Source: Bacillota bacterium (lineage in GTDB: Bacteria; Bacillota; Bacilli; Calditerricolales; Calditerricolaceae). From it: a stretch of 64,000 nt of DNA. The stretch covers positions 839-64,838 of the forward strand of contig PKQU02000001.1 of NCBI GenBank assembly GCA_017577925.2. Reading direction: 5' to 3'. This document shows positions 18,356 through 64,000 of this stretch, one piece after another (positions within the stretch are counted from its first letter, which is position 1; each line of letters begins with the position of its first letter). Below the pieces are notes generated by a model, which was not told where the DNA came from, searched no databases, and was given only the letters and a program-made list of their open reading frames with translations. The translations under genes and the position numbers were made by a program.

Positions 18356-18438
18356 GGGCTTTTCCTTTCCGTTAAATCGTAAGAACATTTGGTCAAGAGA
18401 GAAAAATACTTCGATATAGGCAGAGGGAGGCATGGTCT

Positions 18439-19335: not shown

Positions 19336-19392
19336 GGCGGCTATGGGCAGAGCGGCGACAAACGCACCACGCGAACGAAAGGGGCGAACGCA

Positions 19393-21653: not shown

Positions 21654-21667
21654 ACGGAGGGATGAGC

Positions 21668-23143: not shown

Positions 23144-23213
23144 ACGGCGGACGCGCGGCAAAAGTTTATGGAATAGAATGAAAAATTCATGTATTCAGGG
23201 GAGGGACCGGGCC

Positions 23214-24206
23214 ATGGTGAACATCGTCCGTCTGCATCACGTGGAGCTGTGCGTCACCGATCTGGAGCGGTCCAAGGCGTTCTACGTCGACCTGCTCGGG
23301 TTGTACGTGACGGAAGAAACGAAGAACCAGGTGTTCCTGCGGGCCATCGAAGACGCCAACCACCACTGTCTTGTGCTGACCCAGTCCGATACCCCCAGCG
23401 TGGGCCACATCGCGTACCGCGTGGCGCGGGAGGAGGACCTCGACGCGCTGGCCCAAACCTTTGCCGCACAGGGACTGCCCATGCGATGGGTGGCTTCCGG
23501 CGAGGAGCGCGGCCAGGGGCGGGCCCTGCGCGTGCAGGACCCGGTCGGCCTACCGGTGGAGTTTTTCTGCGCCATGGACAAAGCGGAGCGGATGCTGCAG
23601 AAATTCCATCTCCACCGTGGGGCGCGACTGCAGCGCATCGACCATATCCACTGCTTCGTGTCCGATTTGTCCAAGGCCTATGACTGGTACACCAAGACCC
23701 TCGGCTTCCGCTGTTCCGAGGCGACGGTGACACCGGACGATCCGCCGAAACTGTGGGCGGCGTGGCTGTTTCGCAAGCCCAACGTCCACGATGTGGCCCT
23801 GACGCACCGCGACGGGCCGCGTTTCCACCACGTTGCCTTCTGGGTGCCCGATCCCAAGGTGATCCTTGATTTTTGCGACATCCTTGGCGCCACCGGCCAC
23901 GCTTCGCGCATTGAACGGTACCCCGGCCGGCATGGCCTGTCCAATGCCTTTTTCCTGTACCTGCGGGATCCGGACGGCATCCGCGTCGAGCTGTACACCG
24001 GCGACTACTTCACCGGCGACCCCGACTGGGAGCCGGTGGTGTGGCGGAGCGATGACCCGCAGCGGGCCACGTTCTGGGGCGTCGCGTCGCCGCGGAGCTG
24101 GTTTGAGGAACTCGTGCCGGTCCGCCACGTGGTGACCGGCGAGCGGGTGGCCGTTCAGCCGAAACGGGAAGAAGGGGTGGCGCCATGGGCCGCTTACGCG
24201 CGCTGA
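23214..24206 (+). CDS. hpaD: Extradiol dioxygenase, homoprotocatechuate (3,4-dihydroxyphenylacetate) 2,3-dioxygenase type
   Basis: Two VOC modules. RIDHIHCFV, FHHVAFWV and ERYPGRHGLSNAFFLYLRDPDGIRVELY resemble HPCD/MndD. Confidence 0.85.
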   Translation: MVNIVRLHHVELCVTDLERSKAFYVDLLGLYVTEETKNQVFLRAIEDANHHCLVLTQSDTPSVGHIAYRVAREEDLDALAQTFAAQGLPMRWVASGEERGQGRALRVQDPVGLPVEFFCAMDKAERMLQKFHLHRGARLQRIDHIHCFVSDLSKAYDWYTKTLGFRCSEATVTPDDPPKLWAAWLFRKPNVHDVALTHRDGPRFHHVAFWVPDPKVILDFCDILGATGHASRIERYPGRHGLSNAFFLYLRDPDGIRVELYTGDYFTGDPDWEPVVWRSDDPQRATFWGVASPRSWFEELVPVRHVVTGERVAVQPKREEGVAPWAAYAR

Positions 24207-25420
24207 TGTCCATCGGTTTGTGGCCCCTCCTGCTCGCGGTTCTGGTTGCCGGGTGCGCGGCACCGGCGACGAACACGGGCGGCAGTTCCGGTGGGGAGAC
24301 GGGCGGCCCGGAGCCGGCGCAGGGTCCGCCGTCCGGTCCGGCGTCGGGGTCCATTCCCGTCGGCGTCATCGTGTCGGTGACGGGGGCAGCGTCAACGCTG
24401 GGCAAGCCGGAGCGGGACACGCTTCTCATGGTGGCCGAGGAGATCAACGCTGCCGGCGGCATCGGCGGAAAGAAGCTGGAGCTCTTCGTGTACGATGACG
24501 AGTCGGATCCGACCAAGGCGGTGCTGGCGCTCAAGAAACTGCTCAATGAACACAAGGTGGTCACCGTCATCGGCGGGACCACGAGCACCAGCAGCCTGGC
24601 GATGATTCCCGAGATCGAGCGGGCGCAAGTTCCCTTCCTTTCCCTCGCGTCGGATATGCGCATTGCCACGCCGGTGAAGAAGTGGGTTTTCAAGGTGGCG
24701 CAGGGGGACGACCTTGTCGTGCCCAAGCTGCTCGCGTACCTGCAAAAACGGGGGATCCGCAATGTGGCGTGGATGAACTCGGCCAACGATTATGGGGAGG
24801 GCGGAAAGCGCGAATTTGAGGCCCAGGCGAAGCGGTACGGGATCACGGCGGTGGGGTTTGCCACCTTCAAGGCCGACGACAAGAGCATGGTTCCGCAGCT
24901 GACCAACCTGCGGGCGAAAAGACCGGAAGCCCTCCTCGTGTACACCACTGTGCCTTCGGGGGCCATCGTGGCACAAAACGCGCGCCAGCTTGGCTATGAC
25001 ATCCCCATCCTCCAGTCCAACGGCATTGCCAACAAGGCCTTCATCGAGCAGGCCAAGGAGGCGGCGGAAGGGGTCATCTTCACTGCCGGCAAGCTCCTCG
25101 TCGCCGACCAGCTCCCCGACAGCGATCCGCAGAAGCCGATTCTCTTGGCCTACCGCCAGGCCTTTGAGGCCAAGTACAACGATCCCGCCAACACCTTTGG
25201 TGGTCACGCATGGGACGCCATCCAGATGCTCGTTGCCGCCCTCAAGGCCGGGGCGACGGAGCCGGCGGCGATCCGCGACTACCTTGAGCGGAATATTCAG
25301 CAGTTTGTCGGCGTGACCGGTGTGTTCACGTTCACGCCGGAGGACCACAACGGGCTGAAGGAAGACGCCCTGGTGCTCATCGAGGTCCGCAACGGTGCAT
25401 GGAAGTTGTTGGAACCCTAA
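24185..25420 (+). CDS. ABC transporter substrate-binding lipoprotein, Liv (branched-chain amino acid/aromatic acid) type
   Basis: Signal peptide with lipobox LVAGC. Periplasmic-binding type 6 pattern (VGVIVSVTGAAS...GKK.E....DD.SDP..A). Confidence 0.88.
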   Translation: MGRLRALMSIGLWPLLLAVLVAGCAAPATNTGGSSGGETGGPEPAQGPPSGPASGSIPVGVIVSVTGAASTLGKPERDTLLMVAEEINAAGGIGGKKLELFVYDDESDPTKAVLALKKLLNEHKVVTVIGGTTSTSSLAMIPEIERAQVPFLSLASDMRIATPVKKWVFKVAQGDDLVVPKLLAYLQKRGIRNVAWMNSANDYGEGGKREFEAQAKRYGITAVGFATFKADDKSMVPQLTNLRAKRPEALLVYTTVPSGAIVAQNARQLGYDIPILQSNGIANKAFIEQAKEAAEGVIFTAGKLLVADQLPDSDPQKPILLAYRQAFEAKYNDPANTFGGHAWDAIQMLVAALKAGATEPAAIRDYLERNIQQFVGVTGVFTFTPEDHNGLKEDALVLIEVRNGAWKLLEP

Positions 25421-25488
25421 GCAGGGCGGCGAGCCTCCTGTGTGGCTCGTCGGCGTTTCGGCATGATGCGCTGAAAGGGGGGAAGGCG

Positions 25489-26370
25489 GTGGATGCGGGC
25501 ACGATGGTGCTGCAGCTGATGTTATCCGGCTTGACCGTGGGAGCGATTTACGCGCTGGTTGCCGTCGGGTTTGTACTCATCTACAACGTAACCGGCGTCC
25601 TCAACTTCGCCCAAGGCGAGTTTGCCGCCGTGGGCGCCCTTACCGGGGCGTGGCTGTCGATGCGGGGACTGCCCCTGTGGGTGTGCGTGGTGCTGGCTGT
25701 GCTCGTGGCGGCCGCCGTGGCGGCGGGGGTGGAGCGGGCGGTGGTGCATCCCGCCCGCCAGAGCCGGCCGATGACGGTGATCATGCTGACGATCGGGGCG
25801 GGGATGGCGTTGCGTGGCGCGGCGCTGCTGGTCTTCGGCACCGATCCTCTCGCCATGCCTATGTTCACCGAAGGGGAGCCGATCTCCATCGGCGGGGCGA
25901 CGATCCTGTGGCAGACTGTATGGGCGCTGGTGCTCTGCTTGCTCTTTTTTGCTGCCCTGGTTTTCTTCTTCGAGAAGACCTACACGGGGAAGGCCGTGCG
26001 GGCCAACGTCATGAACCGTTTCGCCGCGCGCCTGTACGGCATCCGCCCGACCACGCTGTCCTTCTGGGTCTTTGTCGTCGGCGGGGCCGTCAGCGGTCTG
26101 GCCGGCGTGGTGGTCGCGCCGATCACCGGGGCCACCTATGACATGGGGTTGATGTTGAGCATGAAAGGATTTGTCGCCGCGGTGATCGGCGGGCTGAACA
26201 ACGCCGCGGCGGCCGTTGTTGGGGCCGTGTTGCTCGGCGTCGTTGAGTCACTGGCCACGGGGTTGTTGTCGTCCGGATACGGCGACGTGATCAGCTTTGC
26301 GCTTCTCCTTGCCATGCTGCTGGTACGGCCATCGGGCTTGTGGAGCCGGGCCGAGGGCAAGCGGGTGTGA
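25489..26370 (+). CDS. Liv-type ABC transporter permease (LivH-like)
   Basis: LSGLTVGAIYALVAVGFVLIYNVTGVLNFAQGEF is the canonical LivH N-terminus. GTG start 6 nt after AGGGGGG (ATG at 25504 is the alternative). Confidence 0.88.
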   Translation: MDAGTMVLQLMLSGLTVGAIYALVAVGFVLIYNVTGVLNFAQGEFAAVGALTGAWLSMRGLPLWVCVVLAVLVAAAVAAGVERAVVHPARQSRPMTVIMLTIGAGMALRGAALLVFGTDPLAMPMFTEGEPISIGGATILWQTVWALVLCLLFFAALVFFFEKTYTGKAVRANVMNRFAARLYGIRPTTLSFWVFVVGGAVSGLAGVVVAPITGATYDMGLMLSMKGFVAAVIGGLNNAAAAVVGAVLLGVVESLATGLLSSGYGDVISFALLLAMLLVRPSGLWSRAEGKRV

Positions 26371-26396
26371 GCCTCGATAGCGGAAAGGGGGCAACA

Positions 26397-27392
26397 ATGG
26401 CCGTGCGTGTGAAAACCCGCCGGTACATAGGGATGATCGCCGTTTCCGTCGCGGCTTTGGCGCTCCTGGCGTGGGGGGCAAGCCCCTACTGGCTCAGCGT
26501 GCTCAACGTGATCGGCCTGTACACCGTGGTGGCCGTCGGCTTGTCCCTTTTGATGGGGTACGCCGGCCAGGTGTCGCTGGGCCACGCCGGGTTTTACGGC
26601 ATGGGCGCCTATGTGGCGGCGGTGTTGTCAACCCGGTTGGGATGGAACGGGTGGCTGACGCTGCCGGCGGCCGTATTGCTGACGATGGCTGTGGCCTGGG
26701 TGGTGGGGCGGCCGGCAGTGCGTCTGCGCGAACACTACCTGGCCATGGCCACGCTGGGGCTGGGGATGGTGTTTCATATTGTCATGGTGGAATGGGAGGC
26801 GGTGACCGGCGGCTCGTCGGGGATTGTCGGCATTCCGGCGCTGGCCGTCGGTCCGTGGACCGTCGAGGGGGAACGGGCATGGCTGATCCTCACGTGGGGC
26901 GCGGCGGCGATGGCGCTGGCCATGGCTTACAGCCTGGTGACGTCCCCGATTGGCCGCGCGCTGCGGGCCATTGCCGGAAGCGAAGCGGCGGCGGAAGCGC
27001 TCGGCATTCCCGCGTCACGCTACAAGCTGGCCGTCTTTGTGCTCAGCGCCGGTTTCGCCGGGCTGGCCGGGGCGCTGTATGCCTTTTACGTCACGTTTGT
27101 TAGCCCGTCGTCCTTCGGCGTAATGATGTCGATCCAGTTCGTGATGATGGTCGTTGTCGGCGGGGGGCACCGCCTGTGGGGAGCGCCGGCCGGGGCGGCG
27201 ACCCTTGTGCTGCTCGGTGAAGGGGTGAAGGCGTACCTGCCGGCGCTGCTGCCCGGCGCGGGCGGGGAGGTGCAGCTTGTTTTCTACGGGCTTCTCCTGA
27301 TTGCAATCCTGCTGCTGAAACCCGACGGCGTCCTCACCGGGTGGGCAACGTGGCGGCGCAAAAGGAGCGGGGAGCATGCCCGGGCTGCTTGA
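26397..27392 (+). CDS. Liv-type ABC transporter permease (LivM-like)
   Basis: GLSLLMGYAGQVSLGHAGFYGMGAY motif. ATG 5 nt after AAAGGGGG. Confidence 0.88.
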   Translation: MAVRVKTRRYIGMIAVSVAALALLAWGASPYWLSVLNVIGLYTVVAVGLSLLMGYAGQVSLGHAGFYGMGAYVAAVLSTRLGWNGWLTLPAAVLLTMAVAWVVGRPAVRLREHYLAMATLGLGMVFHIVMVEWEAVTGGSSGIVGIPALAVGPWTVEGERAWLILTWGAAAMALAMAYSLVTSPIGRALRAIAGSEAAAEALGIPASRYKLAVFVLSAGFAGLAGALYAFYVTFVSPSSFGVMMSIQFVMMVVVGGGHRLWGAPAGAATLVLLGEGVKAYLPALLPGAGGEVQLVFYGLLLIAILLLKPDGVLTGWATWRRKRSGEHARAA

Positions 27393-28143
27393 GGTGCGCC
27401 GGCTGACAAAGCGGTTTGGCGGGGTGCAGGCCGTGGTCGATGTCTCGTTTTCGGTCCCGCCTGGCATTCTCTACGCCGTCATCGGACCAAACGGCGCCGG
27501 CAAAACGACACTGTTCAACCTCGTGTCCGGGTATTTGGCCGCCGATTCCGGTGAGGTGCGGTTCAACGGGCAGTCCATTCGGGGATGGCCGGCCCACCGC
27601 ATCGCCCGCGCCGGCCTTGCGCGCACGTTCCAGAACCTCGAACTGTTTCCCGGCATGACCGTCCTGGAGAACGTGATGGTCGGCTGCGACGCGCGTGTCC
27701 GCTGCGGGTGGCTGGACGCCTTGTTCGGTACCGGCCGCCGGCGCGCCGCCAATGCCACCTCGCGCGAAGAGGCGCGGCGGCTTCTTGCGCTTTTTTCCTT
27801 GGACGGCGTGGCCGACATTCCCGCGGGTTCGCTCGCATACGGGATGCAGCGGATGGTGGAGATCGTTCGCGCCTTCGCCCTGCGGCCGAAGCTGCTTCTC
27901 CTCGATGAACCGGCGGCGGGGCTGAACCCTGCCGAGCGGCAGCAGCTGGCGGCGGTGCTCCGGCAGGCGCGGGCCCAAGGCGTCACGGTGCTCCTCGTCG
28001 AACACGACGTCGATCTGGTGATGACCGTGGCGGATCGCATCCTCGTGCTTGACCAGGGCCGGGTTCTCGCCGAAGGAACCCCGGAGGAGATCCAGACCCA
28101 TCCCGCCGTGGTGGCGGCGTACCTGGGGGAAGAGGTGAGCTGA
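27376..28143 (+). CDS. Liv-type ABC transporter ATP-binding protein (LivG-like)
   Basis: Walker A GPNGAGKTT, Q-loop RTFQNLELF, Walker B LLLDEP. Confidence 0.9.
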   Translation: MPGLLEVRRLTKRFGGVQAVVDVSFSVPPGILYAVIGPNGAGKTTLFNLVSGYLAADSGEVRFNGQSIRGWPAHRIARAGLARTFQNLELFPGMTVLENVMVGCDARVRCGWLDALFGTGRRRAANATSREEARRLLALFSLDGVADIPAGSLAYGMQRMVEIVRAFALRPKLLLLDEPAAGLNPAERQQLAAVLRQARAQGVTVLLVEHDVDLVMTVADRILVLDQGRVLAEGTPEEIQTHPAVVAAYLGEEVS

Positions 28144-28144
28144 C

Positions 28145-28891
28145 ATGCTGGCGGCCATCGACTTGCGCGTGTATCGCGGTCCGGCACCGGTGCTGCACGG
28201 GGTTACCCTTCAGGTGGACGAAGGGGAAATCGTCGCCGTCGTCGGGCCCAATGGCGCGGGCAAGAGCACGCTGCTCGGCGCCTTGGCCGGTTGTTTTCCG
28301 CCCGCCGCCGGCCGCGTGATGTTCGCCGGTGAGGATGTGACGGGAACGGCTCCGGAGACGCTGGTGCGCCGCGGCCTGGTGCTGGTGCCGGAGCGACGGC
28401 AGGTGTTTCCCGGTCTTACCGTGCGGGACAACCTGTTGCTCGGCGCCTACCATTGGTATCGCCGGAACAAGGGTGAGGCCGCGGCGCTGTTGGACGCCGT
28501 GCTGGCCGATTTTCCGCGCCTGCGCGAGCGCATCGGCCAGCTCGCCGGCAGCCTGAGCGGCGGCGAGCAGCAGATGCTGGCCATCGGGCGGGGGATCATG
28601 GCCCGGCCCCGGGTTCTCCTCCTTGACGAACCGTCCCTCGGATTGGCTCCGAAGGTGGTGACGGACCTCTTTTCCCGTTTTCGCCAACTGTGCACCCGAT
28701 ACGGGACGGCCATGATTCTCGTGGAGCAAAATGTCCGCGCCGCCTTCCGTGTGGCCGACCGCGCCTACGTGCTCGAGCGCGGCCGGGTGGTGCGGGAAGG
28801 CCCGGTCGAGGCGCTGCGCGAGGATCCCCATGTGGTGGGGGCGTACCTTGGGAAGCGCCTGCCCGCCGCGTTGAGGGCAGATGCGCGGTAG
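28145..28891 (+). CDS. Liv-type ABC transporter ATP-binding protein (LivF-like)
   Basis: Walker A GPNGAGKST, signature LSGGEQQML, Walker B LLLDEPSLGLAP. Confidence 0.9.
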   Translation: MLAAIDLRVYRGPAPVLHGVTLQVDEGEIVAVVGPNGAGKSTLLGALAGCFPPAAGRVMFAGEDVTGTAPETLVRRGLVLVPERRQVFPGLTVRDNLLLGAYHWYRRNKGEAAALLDAVLADFPRLRERIGQLAGSLSGGEQQMLAIGRGIMARPRVLLLDEPSLGLAPKVVTDLFSRFRQLCTRYGTAMILVEQNVRAAFRVADRAYVLERGRVVREGPVEALREDPHVVGAYLGKRLPAALRADAR

Positions 28892-47975: not shown

Positions 47976-48278
47976 ATGAGTTGTAAAATGAAGAAACGTT
48001 TACTTGCAACCTGCGCTGGCATTGCACTGGGGGCTGTGCTGGCTGGAAATGCGTTGGCCAGCGGTTATAGTGAATGGGCGCAATTGAAGAGTTCTGTCGT
48101 GGGTGGCAACTATGTAAGGTGTGAATTATACGATAATACCGCTGTTTCAGATTGGTATTTGATTGGCGACGGCATATTCCTAATACAAACCTATCAACGC
48201 CTATCCTGGTCAGTATGTGCATGTACGATTGATGTCCGCGCGGCAGGAAACCAGAGTCCTGATGCTCCTAACTATTAA
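47976..48278 (+). CDS. Small secreted protein with Sec signal peptide (cleavage predicted after ALA), about 71-aa mature part with 3 Cys, no family recognised
   Basis: MSCK-MKKRLLATCAGIALGAVLAGNALA|SGYSEW... The start may be the second ATG (47988). First gene after the island promoter. Confidence 0.65.
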   Translation: MSCKMKKRLLATCAGIALGAVLAGNALASGYSEWAQLKSSVVGGNYVRCELYDNTAVSDWYLIGDGIFLIQTYQRLSWSVCACTIDVRAAGNQSPDAPNY

Positions 48279-48297
48279 TGAAAATATCACTTTTTTT

Positions 48298-48321
48298 ACG
48301 GGGGCTTCCGACAGCCCCCGT
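48298..48321 (+). promoter_or_regulatory. Strong GC hairpin between the secreted-protein gene and the first ABC membrane gene (possible attenuator or mRNA stabiliser)
   Basis: 8-bp stem ACGGGGGC/GCCCCCGT with 8-nt loop. The T7 run lies 5' of the stem, not 3', so it is not a canonical terminator. Confidence 0.5.
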
Positions 48322-48343
48322 CTGTCGTGAGGAGGGACTGGTA

Positions 48344-49135
48344 ATGTGGAAAACCGAATTCCAACGAGCATTCCTGGGGATTCCGTTTTGGCTTGCTGTT
48401 GTAATCGGCACACTGTTATGCATGATCGGGCTTTCCAGTTATTTTGAAGGCCCGAACGTAATTCCCGGTGCACATCCGTTTTATCGAAATGCCTATGAAG
48501 CGTGGCTATTTGCGTATGCGGAAGGTCCCACAGCGCTGTTTGTTATCCTGGCACCTTTGCTGGCTGTTTTGCCGCACGCCGATGCATATGTCATGGATCG
48601 TACGACCGGCTACCTGCGGTTTGTTCTTCTTCGGGTGCCGCGTTGGCGCTATTTCCTGATGCGGTTGGCGGTTGTGGCCTTGTCTGGTGGAATTGCCACT
48701 GCATTACCGCTAATCATCACCTTCGGTATCACGAACCTGATGTTGCCCCGTGGGCTTCCGCCTAGGAGTCCGGGTGAACTTGAGCCGGTAAGCTTTTTGA
48801 ATGTAGTTTACTGGAGCAATCCAGATGTATTTGTGTTCATCGCCACGGGATTAGCCTTTTTGTTTGGCGCGGTTTACGCAACCTTTGGGTTTGCTGTATC
48901 CGCTTATGTGGACAAGCGCTACCTGGCGCTGGTCACTCCTTTTGTGTTCTATCATGTGACCAATTTTGTCCTGGCCGCACTGGGACTTGAGGAATGGACG
49001 CCACCGGGGATGTGGGTACCGTTTGGGATCACCACATCAACCGCTTTTTCCGTGTTCGCCCAACTTATGCTGATGTTGACCGCCACATTGCTTGCCTTTG
49101 CCCTACGGGAAACGAGGCGATCAGTGCATGCGTGA
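48344..49135 (+). CDS. ABC-2-like integral membrane protein, class alpha (P1)
   Basis: 263 aa, about 6 hydrophobic segments. Motif DRTTGYLRFVLLRVPRWRY. ATG 7 nt after GAGGAGGG. Paralogue of P4. Confidence 0.8.
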   Translation: MWKTEFQRAFLGIPFWLAVVIGTLLCMIGLSSYFEGPNVIPGAHPFYRNAYEAWLFAYAEGPTALFVILAPLLAVLPHADAYVMDRTTGYLRFVLLRVPRWRYFLMRLAVVALSGGIATALPLIITFGITNLMLPRGLPPRSPGELEPVSFLNVVYWSNPDVFVFIATGLAFLFGAVYATFGFAVSAYVDKRYLALVTPFVFYHVTNFVLAALGLEEWTPPGMWVPFGITTSTAFSVFAQLMLMLTATLLAFALRETRRSVHA

Positions 49136-49967
49136 ACGGAAAGGACAACCGCAACGTTTGGTCCATTTGGTAAGAGTCGAACTGATTCAACGACTGACAT
49201 CATGGCGCTGGACGGTATGTGCTTTTCTATTCATCCTTGTGGCATACCTGCAAGGGGGAAGAGTGCTGGTTAACGCCGCGAACCAAAACGAATATGTCAA
49301 CATATGGGACGCCCTGTTTTCGATTTTCGCCAATCGTCACATTTTGATGTTTGTGCTCATCCCTTTGTACTTGTATGGAATCAGCGATCTCGTGGTCGAT
49401 CGAGGTTGGGGAGAAACCTATGCGTTACGGTGCGGGTCGCGCAAGTGGTGGTGGTACGGAAAAGCCGCGGCATTAGCTGTGGTAACAGCGACCTATGTGG
49501 CGCTCGGAATAGCACTGGCGGGCGGGACCTCAACCTTCGCGTTTCGGGCGGAAGGGAACTGGAGCACATACGCACGGCAAACCCTGGCTGATTTGTATCT
49601 GTCCCCGATGTTGTTGGCCTTACCACCTGGATTAAGCTTGCTGATTTTAGGTGTTTGGCTGTTTCTCAGCCTATACGGGTTCGGGATGATAACGATCGCC
49701 CTTTCATTGCAGTTGAACGCACCGGTCTATGGATTTACCGGAGGTATGGCACTCTTGTTTTTCGGTTTTCTGCTAATCGATCTCCCTATATTCTCGTGGG
49801 TACACATGGTTTCACCGACCTATCACCTACTCATCCTGAGCGCAATGGATCGTTACTCCGTGCTGGCCCTGTCATTTGGCTATTGGCTGGTTTGGATCGT
49901 CCTGATTGGGTTTTGGGGGCTTCGACTCAGCCAAACACACCATTTTTTAACAAAAGGTCGCACGTGA
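49128..49967 (+). CDS. ABC-2-like integral membrane protein, class beta (P2)
   Basis: 279 aa. NIWDALFSIF...DRGWGETYALRCGSRKWWWYGK. ATG overlaps the P1 stop (ATGCGTGA). Paralogue of P5. Confidence 0.78.
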   Translation: MRERKGQPQRLVHLVRVELIQRLTSWRWTVCAFLFILVAYLQGGRVLVNAANQNEYVNIWDALFSIFANRHILMFVLIPLYLYGISDLVVDRGWGETYALRCGSRKWWWYGKAAALAVVTATYVALGIALAGGTSTFAFRAEGNWSTYARQTLADLYLSPMLLALPPGLSLLILGVWLFLSLYGFGMITIALSLQLNAPVYGFTGGMALLFFGFLLIDLPIFSWVHMVSPTYHLLILSAMDRYSVLALSFGYWLVWIVLIGFWGLRLSQTHHFLTKGRT

Positions 49968-49986
49968 ACGTGGGGAGGGACGAAGC

Positions 49987-50781
49987 GTGTCATTTCGCTT
50001 GTTTCATTGGATGTTCCTAACCACGTTTCGTGGCTGGCATCTAGGGGTCAGCGGGGTGGTGTTTGCATTTCTCGCGTGGCGCAGTGTTCAAAAGGCGGTA
50101 ATCGTATCCGGGGAATCAGCCACGATGCTCGATGCCGTTTTTTTCGCCTTTTGTGGTCCAACAAAAGAAAACCTCTATTTTCTCGATGGCCTTGCCTGGA
50201 TGTTACCGCTGTTTCTCCTGTTTTACTTTTTTGGGGACTCGACTCGCCGAGAGTTAGATATAAACGGTGTGTTCATCTTGCTTCGCGTGCAATCGCGCTT
50301 GCGTTGGTGGACAGCAAAGGCGATCGCACTACTAGTAGCCGTGTTGGCGGTGTATGCGTGGGCGGTTTTAATAGTGGGGTTGGTCGCTTGGGGGATGTTG
50401 GGAAGCGGAAAGAGCGGGCTCTCCTTGACGGTGGACAACACCACAATAAGAGTATCAGATTTGATCTGGACCTTTGGTCTTCATGCGTTGACCGGATTTG
50501 CCCTGGTGTTGGCCCAAAACGTGCTGGCACTGGTGATGCGCCCCGTCTTCGCTTTTTTCGTTGTGGTGACGGTGGTGGTAAGCTCCTGGATGAGCGGCGC
50601 ACTACCTGTCGAGGCGCTGCGCTGGATGCCGGGTAACCAGGGAATTGTAATGCGCCATACTTTGTTTGATCCGGAAGTCTTCGATTTTTCCTTAATCTGG
50701 TCCCTTGGGTATAACAGTTTGCTGATAGGCTTGCTTGCTTGGGTTGGCGCATGGCGCTTGCATCGGATGAACATTTCCTAG
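49987..50781 (+). CDS. ABC-2-like integral membrane protein, class gamma (P3)
   Basis: 264 aa. FILLRVQSRLRWWTAK. GTG 6 nt after GGGGAGGGA. Paralogue of P6. Confidence 0.78.
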   Translation: MSFRLFHWMFLTTFRGWHLGVSGVVFAFLAWRSVQKAVIVSGESATMLDAVFFAFCGPTKENLYFLDGLAWMLPLFLLFYFFGDSTRRELDINGVFILLRVQSRLRWWTAKAIALLVAVLAVYAWAVLIVGLVAWGMLGSGKSGLSLTVDNTTIRVSDLIWTFGLHALTGFALVLAQNVLALVMRPVFAFFVVVTVVVSSWMSGALPVEALRWMPGNQGIVMRHTLFDPEVFDFSLIWSLGYNSLLIGLLAWVGAWRLHRMNIS

Positions 50782-50804
50782 AACCGAAGAAGAGGGGGGA
50801 GACG

Positions 50805-51503
50805 ATGACTGCGGCAGGGCGAGTGAACGAAACGGTTGTGCACGTGAAAAACGTGACCGTACGCATGAAGAACCAAGTGGTGCTAGAGCGGATCAACTTG
50901 CAGTTGGATGAAGGGAAAATTTACGGCATCATTGGACGAAACGGTTCGGGGAAGACCATGTTGCTCCGCGTATTGTGCGGGCTGGTTCGGCCCAGCGAAG
51001 GGGAGGTGTGGGTGCTCGGGCGCGAAATCAGCCGGCCCGGAGCCTTTCCTGATGAGGTGGGAGCCGTCATCGAGACACCGGGTTTCTTACCGCAATACAG
51101 CGGTTTGAAAAACCTGAAATTGCTGGCTTCCCTTCGCAACCGCATCGATGAGGACGACATCAAAGAGGCTATTCGGCTGGTAGGGCTTGATCCGGAGAAC
51201 AAAAAACCGGTGCGCACCTATTCTCTCGGTATGCGCCAGCGTCTGGGCCTGGCACAGGCGATCATGGAAAAACCTCGGCTCCTGCTCTTGGATGAACCGT
51301 CTAACGGCTTGGATCAGGAGGGTGTGCGCGACCTACACATCCTGTTGCGCAACCTGCGTAGCAAAGGGGTCACGATTTTGCTGACCAGCCACAGCCGGGA
51401 GGAAATTGAGACACTTTGTGATGCCGTGTATTACATGGAACGGGGACGGCTCGAAGCCTTGCCAGAAGTCCAGGGATCACTTCCAATAGAAAAACATCTG
51501 TAG
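50805..51503 (+). CDS. ABC transporter ATP-binding protein, LanF-like (E-loop) type (A1)
   Basis: Walker A GRNGSGKT. E in the Q-loop position (VGAVIETPGF). Signature YSLGMRQRL. Walker B LLLLDEP. H-loop TSH. Confidence 0.88.
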   Translation: MTAAGRVNETVVHVKNVTVRMKNQVVLERINLQLDEGKIYGIIGRNGSGKTMLLRVLCGLVRPSEGEVWVLGREISRPGAFPDEVGAVIETPGFLPQYSGLKNLKLLASLRNRIDEDDIKEAIRLVGLDPENKKPVRTYSLGMRQRLGLAQAIMEKPRLLLLDEPSNGLDQEGVRDLHILLRNLRSKGVTILLTSHSREEIETLCDAVYYMERGRLEALPEVQGSLPIEKHL

Positions 51504-51542
51504 AGCTTTAAAGCCCTCTTTTTTTACATCGGAGGTGATCAC

Positions 51543-51656
51543 ATGAAAACCGTCATCAGCACCAAATCTTCCGAGCAGATCTTGGCCAGCCGCGCGGCTT
51601 GTTGTGAAGACGGGCGCTTTCGTCTGCAGGCCGTCAAGGACGGACCGCCGCGGTGA
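51543..51656 (+). CDS. Candidate 37-aa ORF MKTVISTKSSEQILASRAACCEDGRFRLQAVKDGPPR
   Basis: Below the track cutoff. ATG 5 nt after GGAGGTGA, directly downstream of A1. Composition changes part-way through the ORF, so it may be a gene fragment. Confidence 0.35.
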   Translation: MKTVISTKSSEQILASRAACCEDGRFRLQAVKDGPPR

Positions 51657-52208
51657 CCCTGTGACCAAGGGATTGCTGGCCAAGTGCGCCCGCCATCAGC
51701 AGCCCGCACAAGCGCGCACGCCGAAAAAGAAGATGGCCGGCGTAACCGCAGCCGTTGCCCTGGAACGGTCGGAATGGCCATGCCGGCCGCAGCATTGAAG
51801 GGACAGGAGCACACTGGAAAAGCGTGCCACTCGTAAACGTACGAACATGTCTAATGGTTTTCTTTTATTACAATTCATGGTTAATAGGTAACAACCAGAA
51901 TTTTCGTCGTATCTTCCCCTTCTTTTCGTCTGCGACCAGTTTTTCATGCTGCTGACCGGGGGAGATATCCCTGGTTCTGGGCAAACTGCCCGGGGATAGA
52001 TTTATAGATTGATACACAGCCAGGGAATGGAATACTGAAAGGGGGCTTCGAAAAAACATTAGACGGAAAAAGTTAACGAAATCCACAGACTGCCTCTGGT
52101 AATCGGCAATCTACTACAACAGCTAGGCATCAGAAGGACAGAAAATTACGTATTTCCTCAAACGGAACACATAGAATCATGACTCTGGCATAGAAAGGAT
52201 AATGCTGT

Positions 52209-53057
52209 ATGTTCAGTATTCTCTCTGCAGAAGCTCATCGTTTGCGACATCGTTGGCAAACCGCCTTGGCCTTCTTGCTAATCGTCGGGTTTATGGTTCA
52301 AGGTTACATTGCCTATCAGAATAACGGATATCTATCCAATCAGTTCAGTGCGTATATTGCATATCTCTACGCATTAGGGGCCGGCGGAAGTGCTTTTTGG
52401 ATCGGCATCTTGCCCTTGGCCGCTTGCCTCATCACAGGGGATAGTTTGGCTTGGGACCGGAAAACAGGAGCCGTTCGCTTCCTGCTCGTTCGCGTTCCGC
52501 GCCGGCGTTACATTGTCCAGAAAATCCTGGCCACCAGCCTCTTCACCGGGCTGTTGTTCTTTGCCGGGTTTCTTGTTTCGTTTCTCATTGCCATCGTGTG
52601 GTTTCCGATGACGCTGCCGCCGTGGCATGTGGTCAACGGTGTTCCTACACTGAGCCACATTGCTCCGAATGGGGAGGTCTATCCGTTTCCTACATTTTTC
52701 CACAATCTTTTTTTTGAGCATCCGTTCGTGCACGTGCTCTTGGTTACGCTGGTGGTGATCCTCTCGGCAGTCGCCTGGGCAAACCTGTCGCTGCTTCTTT
52801 CGCTCTGGACGACAAATATTTATCTGGTCTTGGGGATCCCCTGGCTCGCTTACATTGTGGTGATGTTCATTATGGCCATTCCAGTCGTTGGTCTGCCCCA
52901 CATCTCGCCGCTGGCCCTTTCCGGTCCGTTCATCGCCATGCGGTCGGGCTCTCTCGGATTGTGGATTCCGTTCATTTGGCTCGTGATTATTGTAGGCCTG
53001 GCAGCCGCTACCTACACGATCTTTGTTTTAAGGAAAGGGAGGGACATCCTTGAATAA
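52209..53057 (+). CDS. ABC-2-like integral membrane protein, class alpha (P4)
   Basis: 282 aa. DRKTGAVRFLLVRVPRRRY matches the P1 motif. RBS AGAAAGGA. Confidence 0.8.
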   Translation: MFSILSAEAHRLRHRWQTALAFLLIVGFMVQGYIAYQNNGYLSNQFSAYIAYLYALGAGGSAFWIGILPLAACLITGDSLAWDRKTGAVRFLLVRVPRRRYIVQKILATSLFTGLLFFAGFLVSFLIAIVWFPMTLPPWHVVNGVPTLSHIAPNGEVYPFPTFFHNLFFEHPFVHVLLVTLVVILSAVAWANLSLLLSLWTTNIYLVLGIPWLAYIVVMFIMAIPVVGLPHISPLALSGPFIAMRSGSLGLWIPFIWLVIIVGLAAATYTIFVLRKGRDILE

Positions 53058-53712
53058 CAATACTTCGATGGCCATCGAAGCACACAACGTCGAAAAACAC
53101 TTGGGCGGCGTGGCCATCCTCCGGGGTGTCAATCTTCGCGTGGAATATGGAGAAATCGTGGCCATTGTGGGCGCAAACGGGTCCGGGAAATCCTTGTTCC
53201 TTCGCACCCTTTGCGGCCTGGTCTATCCGGACAAGGGCCAGATTGTGATCGGAGGGCAGCTCCTCAAACCCGGAATGACAGGGGCGCTTGCCGACGTTGG
53301 CGTGCTGATCGAGACGCCGGGATTTCTGCCGTATCTGTCGGGAATGGACAACTTGCGGCTTTTGGCCATGCTGCGCCGCCGGATTACCGATGATGAAGTT
53401 GCAATGGCCATGCGCCAGGTCGGGCTCGATCCGGCCAACAAGCGTCCTGTCCGGACGTATTCGATGGGCATGCGGCAGCGCCTGGGCATCGCCCAGGCCT
53501 TGATGGAACGGCCACGTGTTCTGTTATTGGACGAGCCCACGAACGCGCTGGATCCGGAGTTCACGGAAACCTTCCTCCAGATGCTCAAAACGTTGCGTAC
53601 GCAAGGTGTCGCCATTGTCCTGACGTCCCACGAATTACACGAGGTTGCGGAGCTGGCGGACCGCATTCTCGTCATGCGGGACGGGATATTGTCGGATTAC
53701 CGTCCCGCTTAA
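53050..53712 (+). CDS. ABC transporter ATP-binding protein, LanF-like (E-loop) type (A2)
   Basis: Walker A GANGSGKS, VGVLIETPGF, YSMGMRQRL, LLLDEP. TTG 5 nt after AAGGGAGGGA. Clear paralogue of A1. Confidence 0.88.
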   Translation: MNNNTSMAIEAHNVEKHLGGVAILRGVNLRVEYGEIVAIVGANGSGKSLFLRTLCGLVYPDKGQIVIGGQLLKPGMTGALADVGVLIETPGFLPYLSGMDNLRLLAMLRRRITDDEVAMAMRQVGLDPANKRPVRTYSMGMRQRLGIAQALMERPRVLLLDEPTNALDPEFTETFLQMLKTLRTQGVAIVLTSHELHEVAELADRILVMRDGILSDYRPA

Positions 53713-53732
53713 AGGGAGGGAACCCCGATCCC

Positions 53733-54548
53733 GTGTCTTTCCGCATGGTCTGGTTTCATGCACTGGTTTTATTGAGCCGCACACGATGGAAGGTGGTTCC
53801 GCTCTTCGCCCTTGGGATCACAGTCCTTGCGGTGGCGGATCTCGCCAAGGGTTACGGGAAGCTCGGCGATGCGAACCAGTGGGACGTCTTGCTGAATGTG
53901 TTCAACGATCCGTTTAAGGTCGTTGTTCTTCTGCCGGCATTCTTTTTCATCCTGGTTGCGGATGTCGTGACGCAAGACCTCGAAGGATGGGGGTATCTAC
54001 ACTGGAACCGCGGTCCGTCTCGGGCTCTGTGGTGGTGGAGCAAGGTAGGCACCGTGGGAATTGCGGCCTTCCTGTACAGCAGCATGATGTGGCTAATTGC
54101 CGTGCTGGTCAGCGTCTTTACGGTGCAATGGCAGCTACCCTGGAGCCGGTTGGTGATGCTATCGCAGTGGAGTTACCCGGGCGGTCTTGGGCCGCAACAC
54201 CTCCATGTGCCACCACCCGTGATTTTGTTTCAAGCGTGGGGATTGATCACCTGGGGCCTTTTCGTCTGGGGCACGATCATTGCCCTCCTGGCCTTTGTGC
54301 TGCGCCATACCGGCATAGCCTGGATGACAGGTGCCGCAAGTTGTTTGATTTCGTACGGCATCTGGATAATTGCTACGGAAAAAGCTCCCTGGGCACCCAC
54401 CTTGCACTTGCTGTTGAAGGTACACGTAGAATTCGAGAGCCGGGTGCCTGCGTTCTTCACGATCGGATGGTCGTTCCTCGCAGAAACCCTTTTGCTCTTG
54501 GCCGCCGGCGTGGTGGGTCATCTTTTGTCGGTGAGGCGTGATCTTTGA
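53733..54548 (+). CDS. ABC-2-like integral membrane protein, class beta (P5)
   Basis: 271 aa. NQWDVLLNVF...EGWGYLHWNRGPSRALWWWSK parallels P2. GTG after AAGGGAGGG. Confidence 0.78.
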   Translation: MSFRMVWFHALVLLSRTRWKVVPLFALGITVLAVADLAKGYGKLGDANQWDVLLNVFNDPFKVVVLLPAFFFILVADVVTQDLEGWGYLHWNRGPSRALWWWSKVGTVGIAAFLYSSMMWLIAVLVSVFTVQWQLPWSRLVMLSQWSYPGGLGPQHLHVPPPVILFQAWGLITWGLFVWGTIIALLAFVLRHTGIAWMTGAASCLISYGIWIIATEKAPWAPTLHLLLKVHVEFESRVPAFFTIGWSFLAETLLLLAAGVVGHLLSVRRDL

Positions 54549-55375
54549 CCATGGAAAATGCAGGGCTGCATCAACATGGGCGACTTTGCAGCGTGGAGTT
54601 TCGCGTATTGGCAAGGCGACGAATATGGCTGATGCTCTTGCCGATTGTGGGGCTCTATGGGATCCTGAGCGCCCTGAATGTCAAGAATGGAATTTCCGAT
54701 CACCTTTTGAACCCTTGGCAAATTGGGGTTATGGTCCTGGGAGGACCGTCGTTCCAGGCGTCCGTGCTGAAAATCCTTGAGTGGCTGATCATCCCTGGCG
54801 CGTTCGTCCTTGGCGTGGGCGAGCCGTATTCCCTGTTGGCGACCTCCTGGAACCAACTCGTCCTCGTTCGCGTGCCGAGCCGCTGGCGCTTCTGGTGGGG
54901 ACGAACCGTCACCTGGTACGGGTGGGCCTTGCTGTACGGACTTGTGGTTTTGGGAATTGGCGTCGTAGCCGGGAAAATGGCGCATCCATCGGCTGCGTGG
55001 GGCATACCCCAAACGTTGAGCCTGGACAATTTGCAAATCGAAAACGGGTTCTTGCTGATCGCTTGGGTTGGCCTCTCTCTCGTGGCCACGCTTTGGGGCT
55101 ACACTACCCTGCTGCTCCTTTTTTCGCTGTTTTTCTCACGTCCTGGCGTGGCGACGATTTTCACATTGGTCGTGGGGTACGGGTTAACAGCTCTGGGCGT
55201 AAACGTCCCCAGCGTCATCTCCTACCTTCGCCCGTTGTTGGGAGCAAGACTGAATCTGTTTCCAGATACAAACCTGAACGGGAACGACTTCTTGTCACTT
55301 GGCATTAGCACAGGTGTTTGGGTATTCGTCGGTGTGTTAGCTGGATATTCACTTTTCCATCGCAGATCAATATGA
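54545..55375 (+). CDS. ABC-2-like integral membrane protein, class gamma (P6)
   Basis: 276 aa. LVLVRVPSRWRFWWGR parallels P3. TTG overlapping the P5 stop (ATG at 54551 is the alternative). Confidence 0.78.
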   Translation: MTMENAGLHQHGRLCSVEFRVLARRRIWLMLLPIVGLYGILSALNVKNGISDHLLNPWQIGVMVLGGPSFQASVLKILEWLIIPGAFVLGVGEPYSLLATSWNQLVLVRVPSRWRFWWGRTVTWYGWALLYGLVVLGIGVVAGKMAHPSAAWGIPQTLSLDNLQIENGFLLIAWVGLSLVATLWGYTTLLLLFSLFFSRPGVATIFTLVVGYGLTALGVNVPSVISYLRPLLGARLNLFPDTNLNGNDFLSLGISTGVWVFVGVLAGYSLFHRRSI

Positions 55376-55376
55376 T

Positions 55377-55412
55377 GTTAAAAAATAGGCCCGCAAAAAC
55401 GGGCCCTTTCTT
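55377..55412. terminator. Bidirectional intrinsic terminator at the right island border
   Basis: A6, stem GGCCCG/CGGGCC, 6-nt loop, then CTTTCTT. Confidence 0.7.
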
Positions 55413-55570
55413 GTGTGATCGATGATCACCGTGTTGCCATAGCCATTCATAAGCCAAACCTTGGCGAAATGCCATGGGCCGATGGTACCGGCCAAGCCAA
55501 TACGGTGGCACGGCGACCGGCAAAAAACGAGCGGGCTGCCGACAGGGGTTGGTCGACAGCCCTCTGTCTG

Positions 55571-56200
55571 TTACCGGTTGGCTTTGAGGGCGGCGGCGAT
55601 GCGGGCCACGCGCTCGCCGAGACGGGCAGCCATCGTCTTCTCCCGCTCGTCCGGCATGCGCGAACCGTCCGGACCGGCCACCGTCGAGGCGCCGTAGGGC
55701 GTACCGCCGATGCCTTCGGCGGTGAGCTGTTCTTGGTTTTCGCCGTACGGCAGGCCCACATAGATCATGCCGAAGTGGAGCATCGGGACGATGGAGGTGA
55801 GGAGCGTGGCTTCCTGCCCCCCGTGGATGGAGCCGGTGCTGGTGAACACGGAGGTTACCTTGCCTTCCAGCGCGCCGGACGCCCACAGGCCGCCGGCGGT
55901 GTCGATGAACTGCTTCATTTGCGCCGGCATCATCCCGAAGCGGGTGGGTACGCCCCAGATGATCCCATCGGCCCACTTCAGATCATCGTGGGTGGCCTCG
56001 GGGATGTCTTTCTGGGCCTCTTGCGCCTTCACATAGGCTTCTTGTGTCGACATGGCCTGACGTGCTGCCTCGAATTCCGGCACCTTGGCGATCTTTACGT
56101 TGGCGCCGGCGCGCTTGGCTCCCTCGGCGACAGCCTTGGCCATTTCAAAGGTGTGGCCGTAAGCGCTGTAGTAGACGACGAGGATGTTGGGACTGGTCAT
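55571..56200 (-). CDS. wrbA: NAD(P)H:quinone oxidoreductase, type IV (flavodoxin-like)
   Basis: ILVVYYSAYGHTFEMAKAVAEGA...GVPTRFGMMPAQMKQFIDT...FTSTGSIHGGQE. ATG 7 nt after AAAGGAGTGA. Confidence 0.9.
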   Translation of the reverse strand: MTSPNILVVYYSAYGHTFEMAKAVAEGAKRAGANVKIAKVPEFEAARQAMSTQEAYVKAQEAQKDIPEATHDDLKWADGIIWGVPTRFGMMPAQMKQFIDTAGGLWASGALEGKVTSVFTSTGSIHGGQEATLLTSIVPMLHFGMIYVGLPYGENQEQLTAEGIGGTPYGASTVAGPDGSRMPDEREKTMAARLGERVARIAAALKANR

Positions 56201-61993: not shown

Positions 61994-63371
61994 GCTGGCC
62001 GCCGACCTGCTTGCCCCACCCCAGCGGATAACCGTCGACGGTGACCACCGTCCAGCCGGCTTCGCCGGCGCGGGGGAGCACCTCGCCGCGCAGGTAGGCC
62101 CGCACGGCCGGATCGTCGGCGGCAAAGTCGGCCCGCCGGCGGAAGGCGTCGCCTGGCAGGCCGAGGGCGAGCACGTGCCCCGGCTCGAAGCGGTCCTTCT
62201 TCACCGCGCCGAGGGGCCAGCCAAAACGGACGATGCGCAGGCCGCCGAGGTCGGGCAGGTCGCCGTGGCCGTCGGGCAGGCGGTACAGGAAGGCGCCCAC
62301 CAGGGCGAAGTCCCCCTCGACGGTCCGCGTCAGGGCCTCGCCTTCAAAGCGCCGGAACAGGGACACGGCTTCGGCCACTGCGCCGGCTGGGCGCATTCGC
62401 GTGCGGCGTTGGCCTTGTGCGGCGCGGGCAGCGGACGATTGCGCGTCCGCGTCGGCACGCTTTTCGAGCAGGGCGAGGAAATGCCCCTCGCCGCGCACGC
62501 GGTGGGGCCACAGGCGCACGGCGCGGGTGAGCGATTCCCGGCCGTCCGCCCATTCCGGGCGGCCCGGCGCGAAATGGGGCGCCGGGGGCGGGGCCACCAG
62601 ATCAAAGGACGGGTGTTCGTCGAGGAACCGGGCGATGACCCGCTCGTTCTCCTCGGGAGCGAAGGTGCAAGTGGAATAGACGAGCCGCCCCCCGGGGCGC
62701 AGCATGGCCGCTGCACTGCGCAGGATGGCCAGCTGCCGCCGGGCATGGGGCTCCAGCTGCCCTTCGTCCCATTCCCTGATCGTGTCCGGGTCTTTGCGGA
62801 ACATGCCTTCCCCCGAGCAGGGGGCGTCGACGAGGATGCGGTCGAAATAGCCGGCGAACCGCGCGGCGAGTCGGTCGGGCGATTCGTTCAGCACGAGGGC
62901 GTTTTTCACCCCGAACCGTTCCAGGTTGACCACCAGGGCCTTGACGCGCGCCGGATGGATTTCATTCGCCACCAGGAGACCCCGGTCGCCCATGCGCTGG
63001 GCCAAGTGCGTCGTCTTGCCGCCGGGGGCGGCGCACAAGTCGAGCACGCGCTCCCCCGGCTGCGGGTCGAGGAGGGTCGCCGCGGCCATGGCGCTGGGCT
63101 CCTGCAGGTAATAGAGCCCGGCGGCGTGGTAGGGATGCTTGCCCGGCTGGGCGGTCTCGTCGCAGTAGAAGCCTTCCGGACACCATGGCACCGGGTCCGG
63201 CGCCAGGCCGAGGCGGCGCGTCAGCTCCATGGGGGTGATCTTCAGCGTGTTGACCCGGAGGCCGTGGGTGCGCCCTTCGCGGTAGCTGGCCACAAAGGCG
63301 GCGAATTCCGCCGGGCCCAAGAGCGTGCGCATGCGGCGAAGAAAGGCTTCGGGCAACTTCGTGTTCACCAA
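61953..63371 (-). CDS. NOL1/NOP2/Sun-family RNA m5C methyltransferase (RsmF-like) with C-terminal PUA-like extension
   Basis: LYYLQEPSAM, DLCAAPGGKT and DAPCSGEGMFRKDP. GTG 7 nt after AAAGGAG. 3' end overlaps the debranching-enzyme gene by 41 nt. Confidence 0.88.
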   Translation of the reverse strand: MVNTKLPEAFLRRMRTLLGPAEFAAFVASYREGRTHGLRVNTLKITPMELTRRLGLAPDPVPWCPEGFYCDETAQPGKHPYHAAGLYYLQEPSAMAAATLLDPQPGERVLDLCAAPGGKTTHLAQRMGDRGLLVANEIHPARVKALVVNLERFGVKNALVLNESPDRLAARFAGYFDRILVDAPCSGEGMFRKDPDTIREWDEGQLEPHARRQLAILRSAAAMLRPGGRLVYSTCTFAPEENERVIARFLDEHPSFDLVAPPPAPHFAPGRPEWADGRESLTRAVRLWPHRVRGEGHFLALLEKRADADAQSSAARAAQGQRRTRMRPAGAVAEAVSLFRRFEGEALTRTVEGDFALVGAFLYRLPDGHGDLPDLGGLRIVRFGWPLGAVKKDRFEPGHVLALGLPGDAFRRRADFAADDPAVRAYLRGEVLPRAGEAGWTVVTVDGYPLGWGKQVGGQLKNHYPKGWRWPD

Positions 63372-63467
63372 TACCGCTCCTTTCGCGTCGGAAGGGGAAA
63401 GGGAAGGCGCAAAGCAACGCGTCGGGCGTCCGCGCGGCGGGAGAGCCTGCCGGCGGAGAACGGGTTT

Positions 63468-63476
63468 TGGTATACT
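63468..63476 (+). promoter_or_regulatory. Extended -10 promoter element upstream of the Rdx gene
   Basis: TGgTATACT, 57 nt upstream of the ATG. Confidence 0.4.
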
Positions 63477-63532
63477 AGTTTGTACTCCGCGCAGACGCGG
63501 GAGGCGACGACGGGAGAAGGAGGGGTTGTCCC

Positions 63533-63793
63533 ATGACCAAACATCGGATTACGCTGGAGTACTGCACCCTGTGAAGCTACGAGCCCCACGCCGTCCGGGT
63601 GACGGCGGAGCTGCTTACCGGGCTGAAGGGGCGTCTGGAGACGGTGACGCTCGTTCCCTCATCGGGCGGACGCTTTGAGGTGACCGTCGACGGCCAGCTT
63701 GTCTATTCCAAGCTGGAGACGGGGCGCTTCCCCGAAGACGGGGAGGTGCTGCGCCGGATCCGCGCGCATCTCGGTGAACCGGACGCGTCCTGA
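63533..63793 (+). CDS. Rdx (SelW/SelT/SelH-like) family thioredoxin-fold protein, predicted selenoprotein with in-frame TGA (Sec) at 63572-63574
   Basis: ATG 7 nt after GAGAAGGAGGGG. Translation MTKHRITLEYCTL-U-SYEPHAVRVTAELL...GGRFEVTVDGQLVYSKLETGRFPEDGEVLRRI matches the Rdx pattern IEYC-x-x-C/U with the TGA at the second redox position. The track shows only the 64-aa part after the TGA. Confidence 0.7.
63575..63612 (+). promoter_or_regulatory. Candidate bacterial SECIS hairpin
   Basis: 7-bp stem CGCCGTC/GACGGCG (63589-63607) with loop CGGGT, starting 15 nt after the TGA. A 4-bp lower stem AGCT/AGCT closes it. Confidence 0.45.
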
Positions 63794-63927
63794 CCCATTG
63801 TACCATAGCTTCGGAAGGGCGAAACGAAGCGCTGCGTGCATAACGGTGCCGGACGTGGGACAGACTAGCGGCGACACGCCTTCCCAAACCACGCCGGCGC
63901 CTTTTTGTGCGCCAGAGGAGGAAGACC

Positions 63928-64000
63928 ATGGTGGAACTGGAATGGGCCCTGGCCGGACGCAGCGGGGAATACGGGGCGATTCGCGCCGTGCTTGAGGGCG
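63928..64000 (+). CDS. 5' end of an unidentified ORF truncated by the window edge
   Basis: ATG after GAGGAGGAAGACC. MVELEWALAGRSGEYGAIRAVLEG... continues to the window end. Confidence 0.4.
   Translation, partial: MVELEWALAGRSGEYGAIRAVLEG

Follow-up and report, generated by a model that had tools for sequence, protein, structure and literature searches.

A stretch of 64,000 nucleotides of Calditerricola DNA, referred to here as the window and used for the numbering of all positions, very probably encodes at 63533-63793 on the forward strand an 86-residue selenoprotein of the SelW-like family (also known as the Rdx or SelT-SelW-SelH family), which is truncated in public annotation. The gene consists of 86 codons and a stop, with selenocysteine (Sec) as codon 14, and confidence in this reading stops short of certainty chiefly because the machinery that would decode the codon is inferred rather than observed. 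The host is a species of Calditerricola, an extreme thermophile of hot composts belonging to the Bacilli (Bacillota), and the 90%-identity clusters of neighbouring proteins include entries from Calditerricola yamamurae and C. satsumensis. For the comparative data, L001, L011-L013 and L046 denote fetched loci, and P0001 and P0008 denote database proteins.

The reading frame opens with the ATG at 63533, runs through MTKHRITLEYCTL to an in-frame TGA at 63572-63574, predicted to be the Sec codon from the presence of TGA at the homologous codon in relatives, and stays open for another 72 codons, ending with the stop codon at 63791-63793. Ahead of it lies a Shine-Dalgarno region, GGGAGAAGGAGGGG, read directly at 63512-63525 (+) with an AGGAGG core at 63518-63523, and 7 nt separate the end of its G-run from the ATG. 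The original prediction, made from the letters alone, had described a strong ribosome-binding site (RBS) 7 nt before this ATG and a frame that yields 86 aa if the TGA is decoded, and both are present. The sole product of a mechanical open reading frame (ORF) finder at the locus is a 64-aa frame starting from a GTG (63599-63793, +), and this truncated mis-annotation, represented by the 64-aa P0001, is also the called product in the NCBI, JGI and Logan records, just as automated annotation had been expected to miss or truncate the gene. Direct reading upstream of GTG 63599 found no purine-rich RBS. As the GTG itself (63599-63601) sits within the apical loop and 3′ arm of an mRNA hairpin, the annotated start appears as a by-product of the hairpin sequence. 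On its own, the 64-aa ORF scores 58 bits against the Pfam Rdx profile and matches positions 20-73 of 74, and because this coverage begins only at position 20, the product lacks strand β1 and the redox motif; the earlier claim that the part after the TGA is devoid of both RBS and active site is thereby confirmed. A promoter and terminator consensus scan of 63300-64000 found no sites.

Membership of the full-length product in the Rdx family is supported by profile and structure searches, for which Cys was substituted for the TGA in the 86-aa sequence. The product scores 83 bits on Pfam Rdx PF10262 (cut-off 22.6) and 71.5 bits on NCBIfam TIGR02174 "CXXU_selWTH" (cut-off 34.2), in both cases over profile positions 1-73 of 74, and the 13 codons before the TGA contribute approximately 25 bits to the profile score. 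The match to the equivalog NF041051 SelTWH_Campy is borderline (89.4 bits against a cut-off of 88) and was obtained with Cys replacing Sec, and the gene is not filed there. A phmmer search of the PDB returned six bacterial Rdx proteins and human MIEN1, led by 2FA8 (Atu0228, E = 3e-13) and 3DEX (E = 4e-12). In the printed alignments to these two proteins, the TGA stands opposite the second Cys of C-T-Q-C, with E-Y-C-T-L-U aligned to R-Y-C-T-Q-C in 2FA8, where Atu0228 reads YCTQCNW, and to E-Y-C-T-Q-C in 3DEX. The redox motif C-T-L-U (TGC ACC CTG TGA, 63563-63574, +), identified by alignment with the CxxC of solved Rdx proteins, thus lies directly after the first β-strand, where the CxxC or CxxU motif of the family is found. 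Both the assignment to the family, now above the curated cut-offs of PF10262 and TIGR02174, and the placement of the TGA at the second redox position of CxxC are in line with the original prediction. From similarity to the six solved structures (some 78 residues aligned at E = 3e-13 to 4e-9), the protein would be expected to adopt a thioredoxin-like α/β fold, and a function as a redox-active thiol oxidoreductase is likely for the 86-aa product.

The TGA is conserved far beyond Calditerricola. A protein search yielded 148 homologs, almost all of them called as 55-65-aa proteins covering the C-terminal 50-74% of the query, and 19 of the 20 whose N-terminal extents were inspected begin just past the position of the motif, at internal starts that vary from one homolog to the next. 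As these calls begin immediately after the motif, gene callers evidently cut the homologs at a TGA as well. In a survey with a single genome for each GTDB species, the 80 best loci span Chloroflexota, Acidobacteriota, Latescibacterota, Planctomycetota, a Bacillaceae metagenome-assembled genome (MAG) and other groups, and the codon at the Sec position is TGA in 79 loci and TGT in one (L046). Upstream of the TGA, the 79 loci carry a conserved [IV]-x-[IV]-x-Y-C-x-x segment with a start codon of its own, preceded in many of them by a recognisable RBS. The exception, L046:3001-3258, is the only Cys form among the 80 and reads CVPC, so that the UGA aligns with Cys in a homolog as well as with the CxxC present in all of the PDB relatives. 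Across 72 distinct homologous sequences, the TG of the Cys codon and the TGA form invariant columns. A comparison of orthologues at this codon had been proposed as a way of distinguishing Cys from Sec, and its outcome, together with TGA in 12 Calditerricola assemblies, favours Sec. The closest homologs outside Calditerricola belong to other phyla (Thermomicrobium, Anaerolineae). One further homolog, the 79-aa JGI protein P0008, reads IEYCVVW, with Trp at the Sec/Cys position; the Trp codon TGG is one base from TGA, and the residue could be a real change from Sec to Trp or a base-call error.

Within the genus, the gene lies on a 1.2-Mb contig of NCBI assembly GCA_054654135.1, and many contigs from compost metagenomes also carry it, in a constant order of rsmF (divergent), the SelW-like gene, yugN and bioY. 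All 12 of the independent Calditerricola assemblies have TGA at the codon, including an isolate assembly in NCBI and contigs from at least 10 separate sequencing runs. In the L011-L013 lineage, whose protein is 89% identical, the leader above the RBS has diverged and the RBS core, ATG, frame and TGA remain intact. The two Calditerricola lineages differ at approximately 9% of nucleotides in the coding sequence, and the ratio of nonsynonymous to synonymous substitution rates (dN/dS) over codons 15-86 is 0.16 against L011, with no frameshifts or stops, which places the frame beyond the TGA under purifying selection. The 38-nt segment that spans the TGA and the hairpin is unchanged between these lineages, whereas the 181 nt that follow it carry 21 changes (Fisher p = 0.03). 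Resequencing to TGC or TGT and decay of the upstream frame in close relatives had both been named in advance as signs against a selenoprotein gene; the independent assemblies all read TGA, and the upstream frame is intact and conserved throughout. As TGA is otherwise an ordinary stop, being the commonest one among the coding-like ORFs of the window, any recoding must be local and does not reflect a genome-wide change of code.

The hairpin that follows the TGA fits the consensus for a bacterial selenocysteine insertion sequence (SECIS). It occupies 63589-63607 (+) as CGCCGUC/CGGGU/GACGGCG, with a perfectly paired 7-bp stem formed by 63589-63595 and 63601-63607, six of its pairs being G-C, around a 5-nt loop at 63596-63600. 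Its first paired base is the 15th nt downstream of the TGA, and the folding energy of the stem-loop taken alone is -11.2 kcal/mol. The published bacterial SECIS (bSECIS) model requires an apical loop of 3-9 nt, an upper stem of 4-16 bp, a G among the first two nucleotides of the loop, a spacing of 16-37 nt from the UGA to the loop and a minimum free energy of -7.5 kcal/mol or lower (PMC13188914, Fig. 2A). The hairpin in the window agrees with this model on every point, as it has a 5-nt loop (CGGGU), a 7-bp stem, a G at loop position 2 followed by another G, a distance of 21 nt and the energy given above (PMC13188914). A scan of both strands of the entire window for a coding-like frame running through a single TGA and accompanied by a SECIS-like hairpin returned this gene only, and this combination of a frame on both sides of the TGA with the hairpin is specific.

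Comparison across homologs supports the hairpin at the RNA level. The 72 distinct sequences align without gaps over a segment that opens with the Cys codon and extends 45 nt beyond the TGA, and RNAalifold places a helix at columns 29-34 with 38-43, in register with the stem in the window, with an invariant loop G at column 35 (G63597 in the window). Compensatory exchange is seen at pair 30-42 (CG 42, UA 14, GC 11), pair 32-40 (UA 45, UG 14, CG 13) and pair 31-41 (GC 56, AU 7), and because columns 30 and 42 are third codon positions, this covariation falls at largely synonymous sites and acts at the level of the RNA. When the 7-pair structure of the window is imposed on the 72 sequences, 84% of cells are paired and six of the seven pairs change on both sides. 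The covariation score is 0.41 compared to 0.18 in shuffles, with none of 500 shuffles reaching 0.41, and it drops to 0.03-0.18 when the partners are slid by 1-3 columns as a control. In L046, the Cys form, the corresponding position carries no hairpin, and this locus therefore provides a natural control for the association of the SECIS with the TGA. The comparative evidence goes far beyond chance, and the claim that a 7-bp GC hairpin begins 15 nt after the TGA at the usual bacterial SECIS distance is upheld by the covariation in 72 sequences and by the loop lying 21 nt away.

In detail, the SECIS of the window is a minor variant of that of its family, which usually has a 6-bp stem and a GU(U/C) triloop; the A-U pair closing the triloop has been lost, which leaves a loop of 5 nt, and the stem has gained two G-C pairs at its base. 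At 75 °C it is the 7th most stable of the 72 hairpins (-4.6 kcal/mol compared to a median of -2.3), a ranking that is confounded by GC content. Growth optima of approximately 75 °C are predicted for Calditerricola MAGs (PMC12625702). The additional stability is compatible with such a host optimum, with the same confounding by GC content, and an aerobe of the Bacilli may insert Sec at temperatures of approximately 75-80 °C with a thermally reinforced SECIS.

Assuming that the established bacterial Sec pathway operates in the host, the expression of the gene can be outlined as follows. Translation would start at ATG 63533 behind the strong RBS, and when the ribosome reaches the UGA at 63572-63574, the mRNA hairpin at 63589-63607, whose loop starts 21 nt downstream of the UGA and contains the conserved G, would act as a bacterial SECIS. 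A complex of SelB, GTP and Sec-tRNA(Sec) recruited to the apical loop would then insert selenocysteine as residue 14 in place of termination. The product would have a thioredoxin-like fold with Cys11-x-x-Sec14 at the end of strand β1, and the Cys11/Sec14 pair is predicted to cycle between selenolate/thiol and selenenylsulfide, making the protein a small thiol-dependent oxidoreductase. Insertion of Sec at the UGA is the probable outcome judging from the sequence comparisons, and selA, selB, selC and selD are probably located elsewhere in the genome, since evolution has maintained the TGA and the SECIS together with the frame downstream of the TGA.

Several observations weigh against this reading. 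Neither the 64-kb window nor the adjoining 10 kb downstream contains a gene for tRNA-Sec, SelA, SelB or SelD. Rfam and ARAGORN identify three ordinary tRNAs and no tRNA-Sec in the window, namely a tandem of tRNA-Arg(ACG) and tRNA-Leu(CAA) at 20-192 and a tRNA-Gly(UCC) at 2628-2701, and a Pfam scan of 30 window ORFs combined with precomputed Pfam matches for 10 kb on either side of the gene contains no SelA, SelB or SelD. The absence of sel genes from the window is unsurprising since 64 kb is a small part of a genome of a few megabases; a motif and ARAGORN scan of 93 fetched loci likewise found no sel genes or tRNA-Sec beside SelW-like genes. The literature searched yielded no link between Calditerricola and selenocysteine: the genus is missing from the supplements of a 2016 selenium survey in ISME J, and selenium goes unmentioned in two compost multi-omics papers. 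Furthermore, folding of the hairpin region shows no excess stability over dinucleotide shuffles (z = -0.4 and +0.2), and in a window of 64% GC, 7.9% of the 1386 TGA trinucleotides precede a hairpin meeting loose SECIS constraints and 2.2% precede one as strong as this one. As single-sequence evidence the hairpin is therefore weak, whereas the comparative evidence is strong.

The failure to find Sec machinery in the DNA inspected bears most directly on the possibility that the locus is a relic, with the machinery lacking or lost, translation stopping after 13 residues and the remainder a non-functional remnant, and the position of the nearest homologs outside Calditerricola in other phyla, Thermomicrobium and Anaerolineae, is compatible with horizontal gain of the gene alone. 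Nevertheless, 12 assemblies and two lineages approximately 9% apart in their coding sequence retain an intact RBS, upstream frame, TGA and hairpin, and a downstream dN/dS of 0.16 without frameshifts or stops is not expected of a dead gene, which makes a relic unlikely. Unlikely as well is a Calditerricola that has no canonical selA, selB and selC yet keeps the TGA and hairpin, with purifying selection on both sides; were this the case, it would imply a non-canonical use, for example recoding independent of SelB or a stop regulated by the hairpin.

A related explanation accepts translation through the UGA and replaces Sec with Trp or Cys, inserted by a near-cognate tRNA or under a variant code, so that the hairpin stimulates readthrough rather than recruiting SelB. 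The Trp in P0008 (IEYCVVW) and a decoding machinery that is not observed speak for it, but the standing of TGA as the commonest stop among coding-like ORFs in the window excludes a code change, the geometry and loop G of the hairpin match the SelB-type SECIS consensus, a Trp at the catalytic position of the CxxC/U motif would be inactive, and the family is an established Sec family (PMC1794560, PMC1088965); readthrough of this kind is very unlikely. The public annotation, in which a 64-aa protein starts from GTG 63599 and the open frame upstream is a coincidence, has in its favour the agreement of the NCBI, JGI and Logan gene callers and the 58 bits on Pfam Rdx. Such a protein would be started without an RBS from a codon inside a stable hairpin and would be missing strand β1 and the entire redox motif (profile positions 1-19), and the internal starts are not conserved among homologs, while the upstream I-E-Y-C-x-x-TGA frame is kept in 79 of 80 genomes across phyla, so that this annotation is highly improbable. 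An error of sequencing or assembly hiding a true TGC or TGT, for which nothing speaks beyond the single base that separates these codons from TGA, is effectively refuted by the TGA in the NCBI isolate assembly, in at least 10 independent runs and in 79 other species.

The selenoprotein reading places the gene in a well-described group. SelW-like CxxU proteins, described by Zhang, Gladyshev and colleagues, have been known as a bacterial selenoprotein family for approximately 20 years (PMC1088965, PMC1794560) and ranked first in abundance among the selenoprotein families of the Sargasso Sea data (PMC1088965). Their recorded hosts include Symbiobacterium thermophilum and Desulfotomaculum reducens, both thermophilic and Firmicutes-like, as well as Alkaliphilus metalliredigenes and Geobacter sulfurreducens, and Cys homologs are described as "very few" or even lacking (PMC1794560). 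The gene in the window resembles this family (TIGR02174) in its length of about 80-90 aa, its match to the Rdx profile, the position of C-x-x-U right after strand β1, the in-frame UGA followed by a small hairpin within the ORF with a G in the apical loop, the scarcity of Cys forms (one of 80 here) and the routine truncation by gene callers; the host Calditerricola is new and nothing structural sets the gene apart. The solved Cys-containing Rdx proteins, 2FA8 (Atu0228), 3DEX (SAV_2001), 2OBK, 2OJL, 2P0G and 2OKA, can be aligned over residues 2-80 and share the YC-x-x-C/U position and the G-G-x-F-E-[VI] and G-x-F-P motifs, but they have CxxC in place of Sec, need no SECIS and are approximately 20 aa longer at the C-terminus. 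Eukaryotic Rdx proteins, including selenoprotein W, SelT, SelH, Rdx12 and MIEN1 (C17orf37), share the Pfam family, the CxxU/CxxC position (2LJK, E = 1.5e-8) and a presumed role as thiol oxidoreductases, whereas their SECIS is a 3′-UTR (untranslated region) element with a kink-turn quartet that works with SBP2 and eEFSec, unlike the element of the window, which lies in the ORF right after the UGA.

The SECIS of E. coli fdhF is the paradigm of a SelB-binding hairpin, a stem-loop just 3′ of the UGA within the ORF where SelB delivers Sec-tRNA. The element in the window shares with it the location in the ORF immediately 3′ of the UGA and an apical G and U/G at a fixed distance, but the two have no sequence similarity and the window hairpin has no evident bulged U. 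Counted from the U of the UGA, the loop G is at approximately +23 in fdhF compared to +26 in the window.

Taken together, the gene is a genuine but ordinary addition to the bacterial SelW-like selenoprotein family, and it opens no new question, as the family, motif and SECIS type have been known for about two decades. Its practical consequence concerns annotation, where the public records of the locus and of nearly all of the 148 homologs carry 55-65-aa ORFs without the active site, the true product here very probably being the 86-aa CxxU selenoprotein. The gene also implies the use of selenocysteine by Calditerricola, which was not found reported in the literature searched. The Sec trait is reported to favour thermophiles and to be found in aerobes and anaerobes alike (PMC5029168), and Calditerricola is therefore an unsurprising host.

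The surroundings of the gene are those of ordinary metabolism and include asparagine synthase, QueG, aconitase, phosphoenolpyruvate carboxykinase, glycogen debranching enzyme, RsmF and ABC transporters. In approximately 25 Chloroflexota genomes (Anaerolineae and related), the SelW-like gene is syntenic, by eye, with trpS-like and dtd-like ORFs. No neighbours are conserved across phyla, and because conserved neighbours exist only within lineages, the neighbourhood gives no clue to function. Members of the DsrE-like family also include selenoproteins, and a DsrE-like gene lies about 2.3 kb past the end of the window (L001:12518-12856, -). It is an ordinary Cys form with no in-frame TGA upstream and is thus ruled out as a second selenoprotein.

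Elsewhere in the window, a cluster for the catabolism of aromatic acids, apparently 4-hydroxyphenylacetate-type, extends over 17666-24206, with an aldehyde dehydrogenase, an HpaB-type hydroxylase and a glyoxalase-fold (extradiol-type) dioxygenase recognised by Pfam and a GntR-like regulator, a DapA-like enzyme and an FAH-like enzyme recognised by eye from the translations. It is followed by an ABC transporter of the branched-chain amino-acid type at 24185-28891. A 632-aa ORF at 18001-19899 (-) has no Pfam match and a higher GC content at first than at third codon positions, and was rejected as a gene, being a spurious antisense frame opposite three frames with the appearance of real genes at 17666-18355, 18439-19335 and 19393-20160 (+); long ORFs in a GC-rich genome are not evidence of a gene by themselves. 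The segment at 48000-56000 has a GC content of 0.54 compared to 0.61-0.67 elsewhere, encodes ABC-transporter ATPases together with ORFs that have no Pfam match (e.g., 52209-53057), and may have been horizontally acquired.

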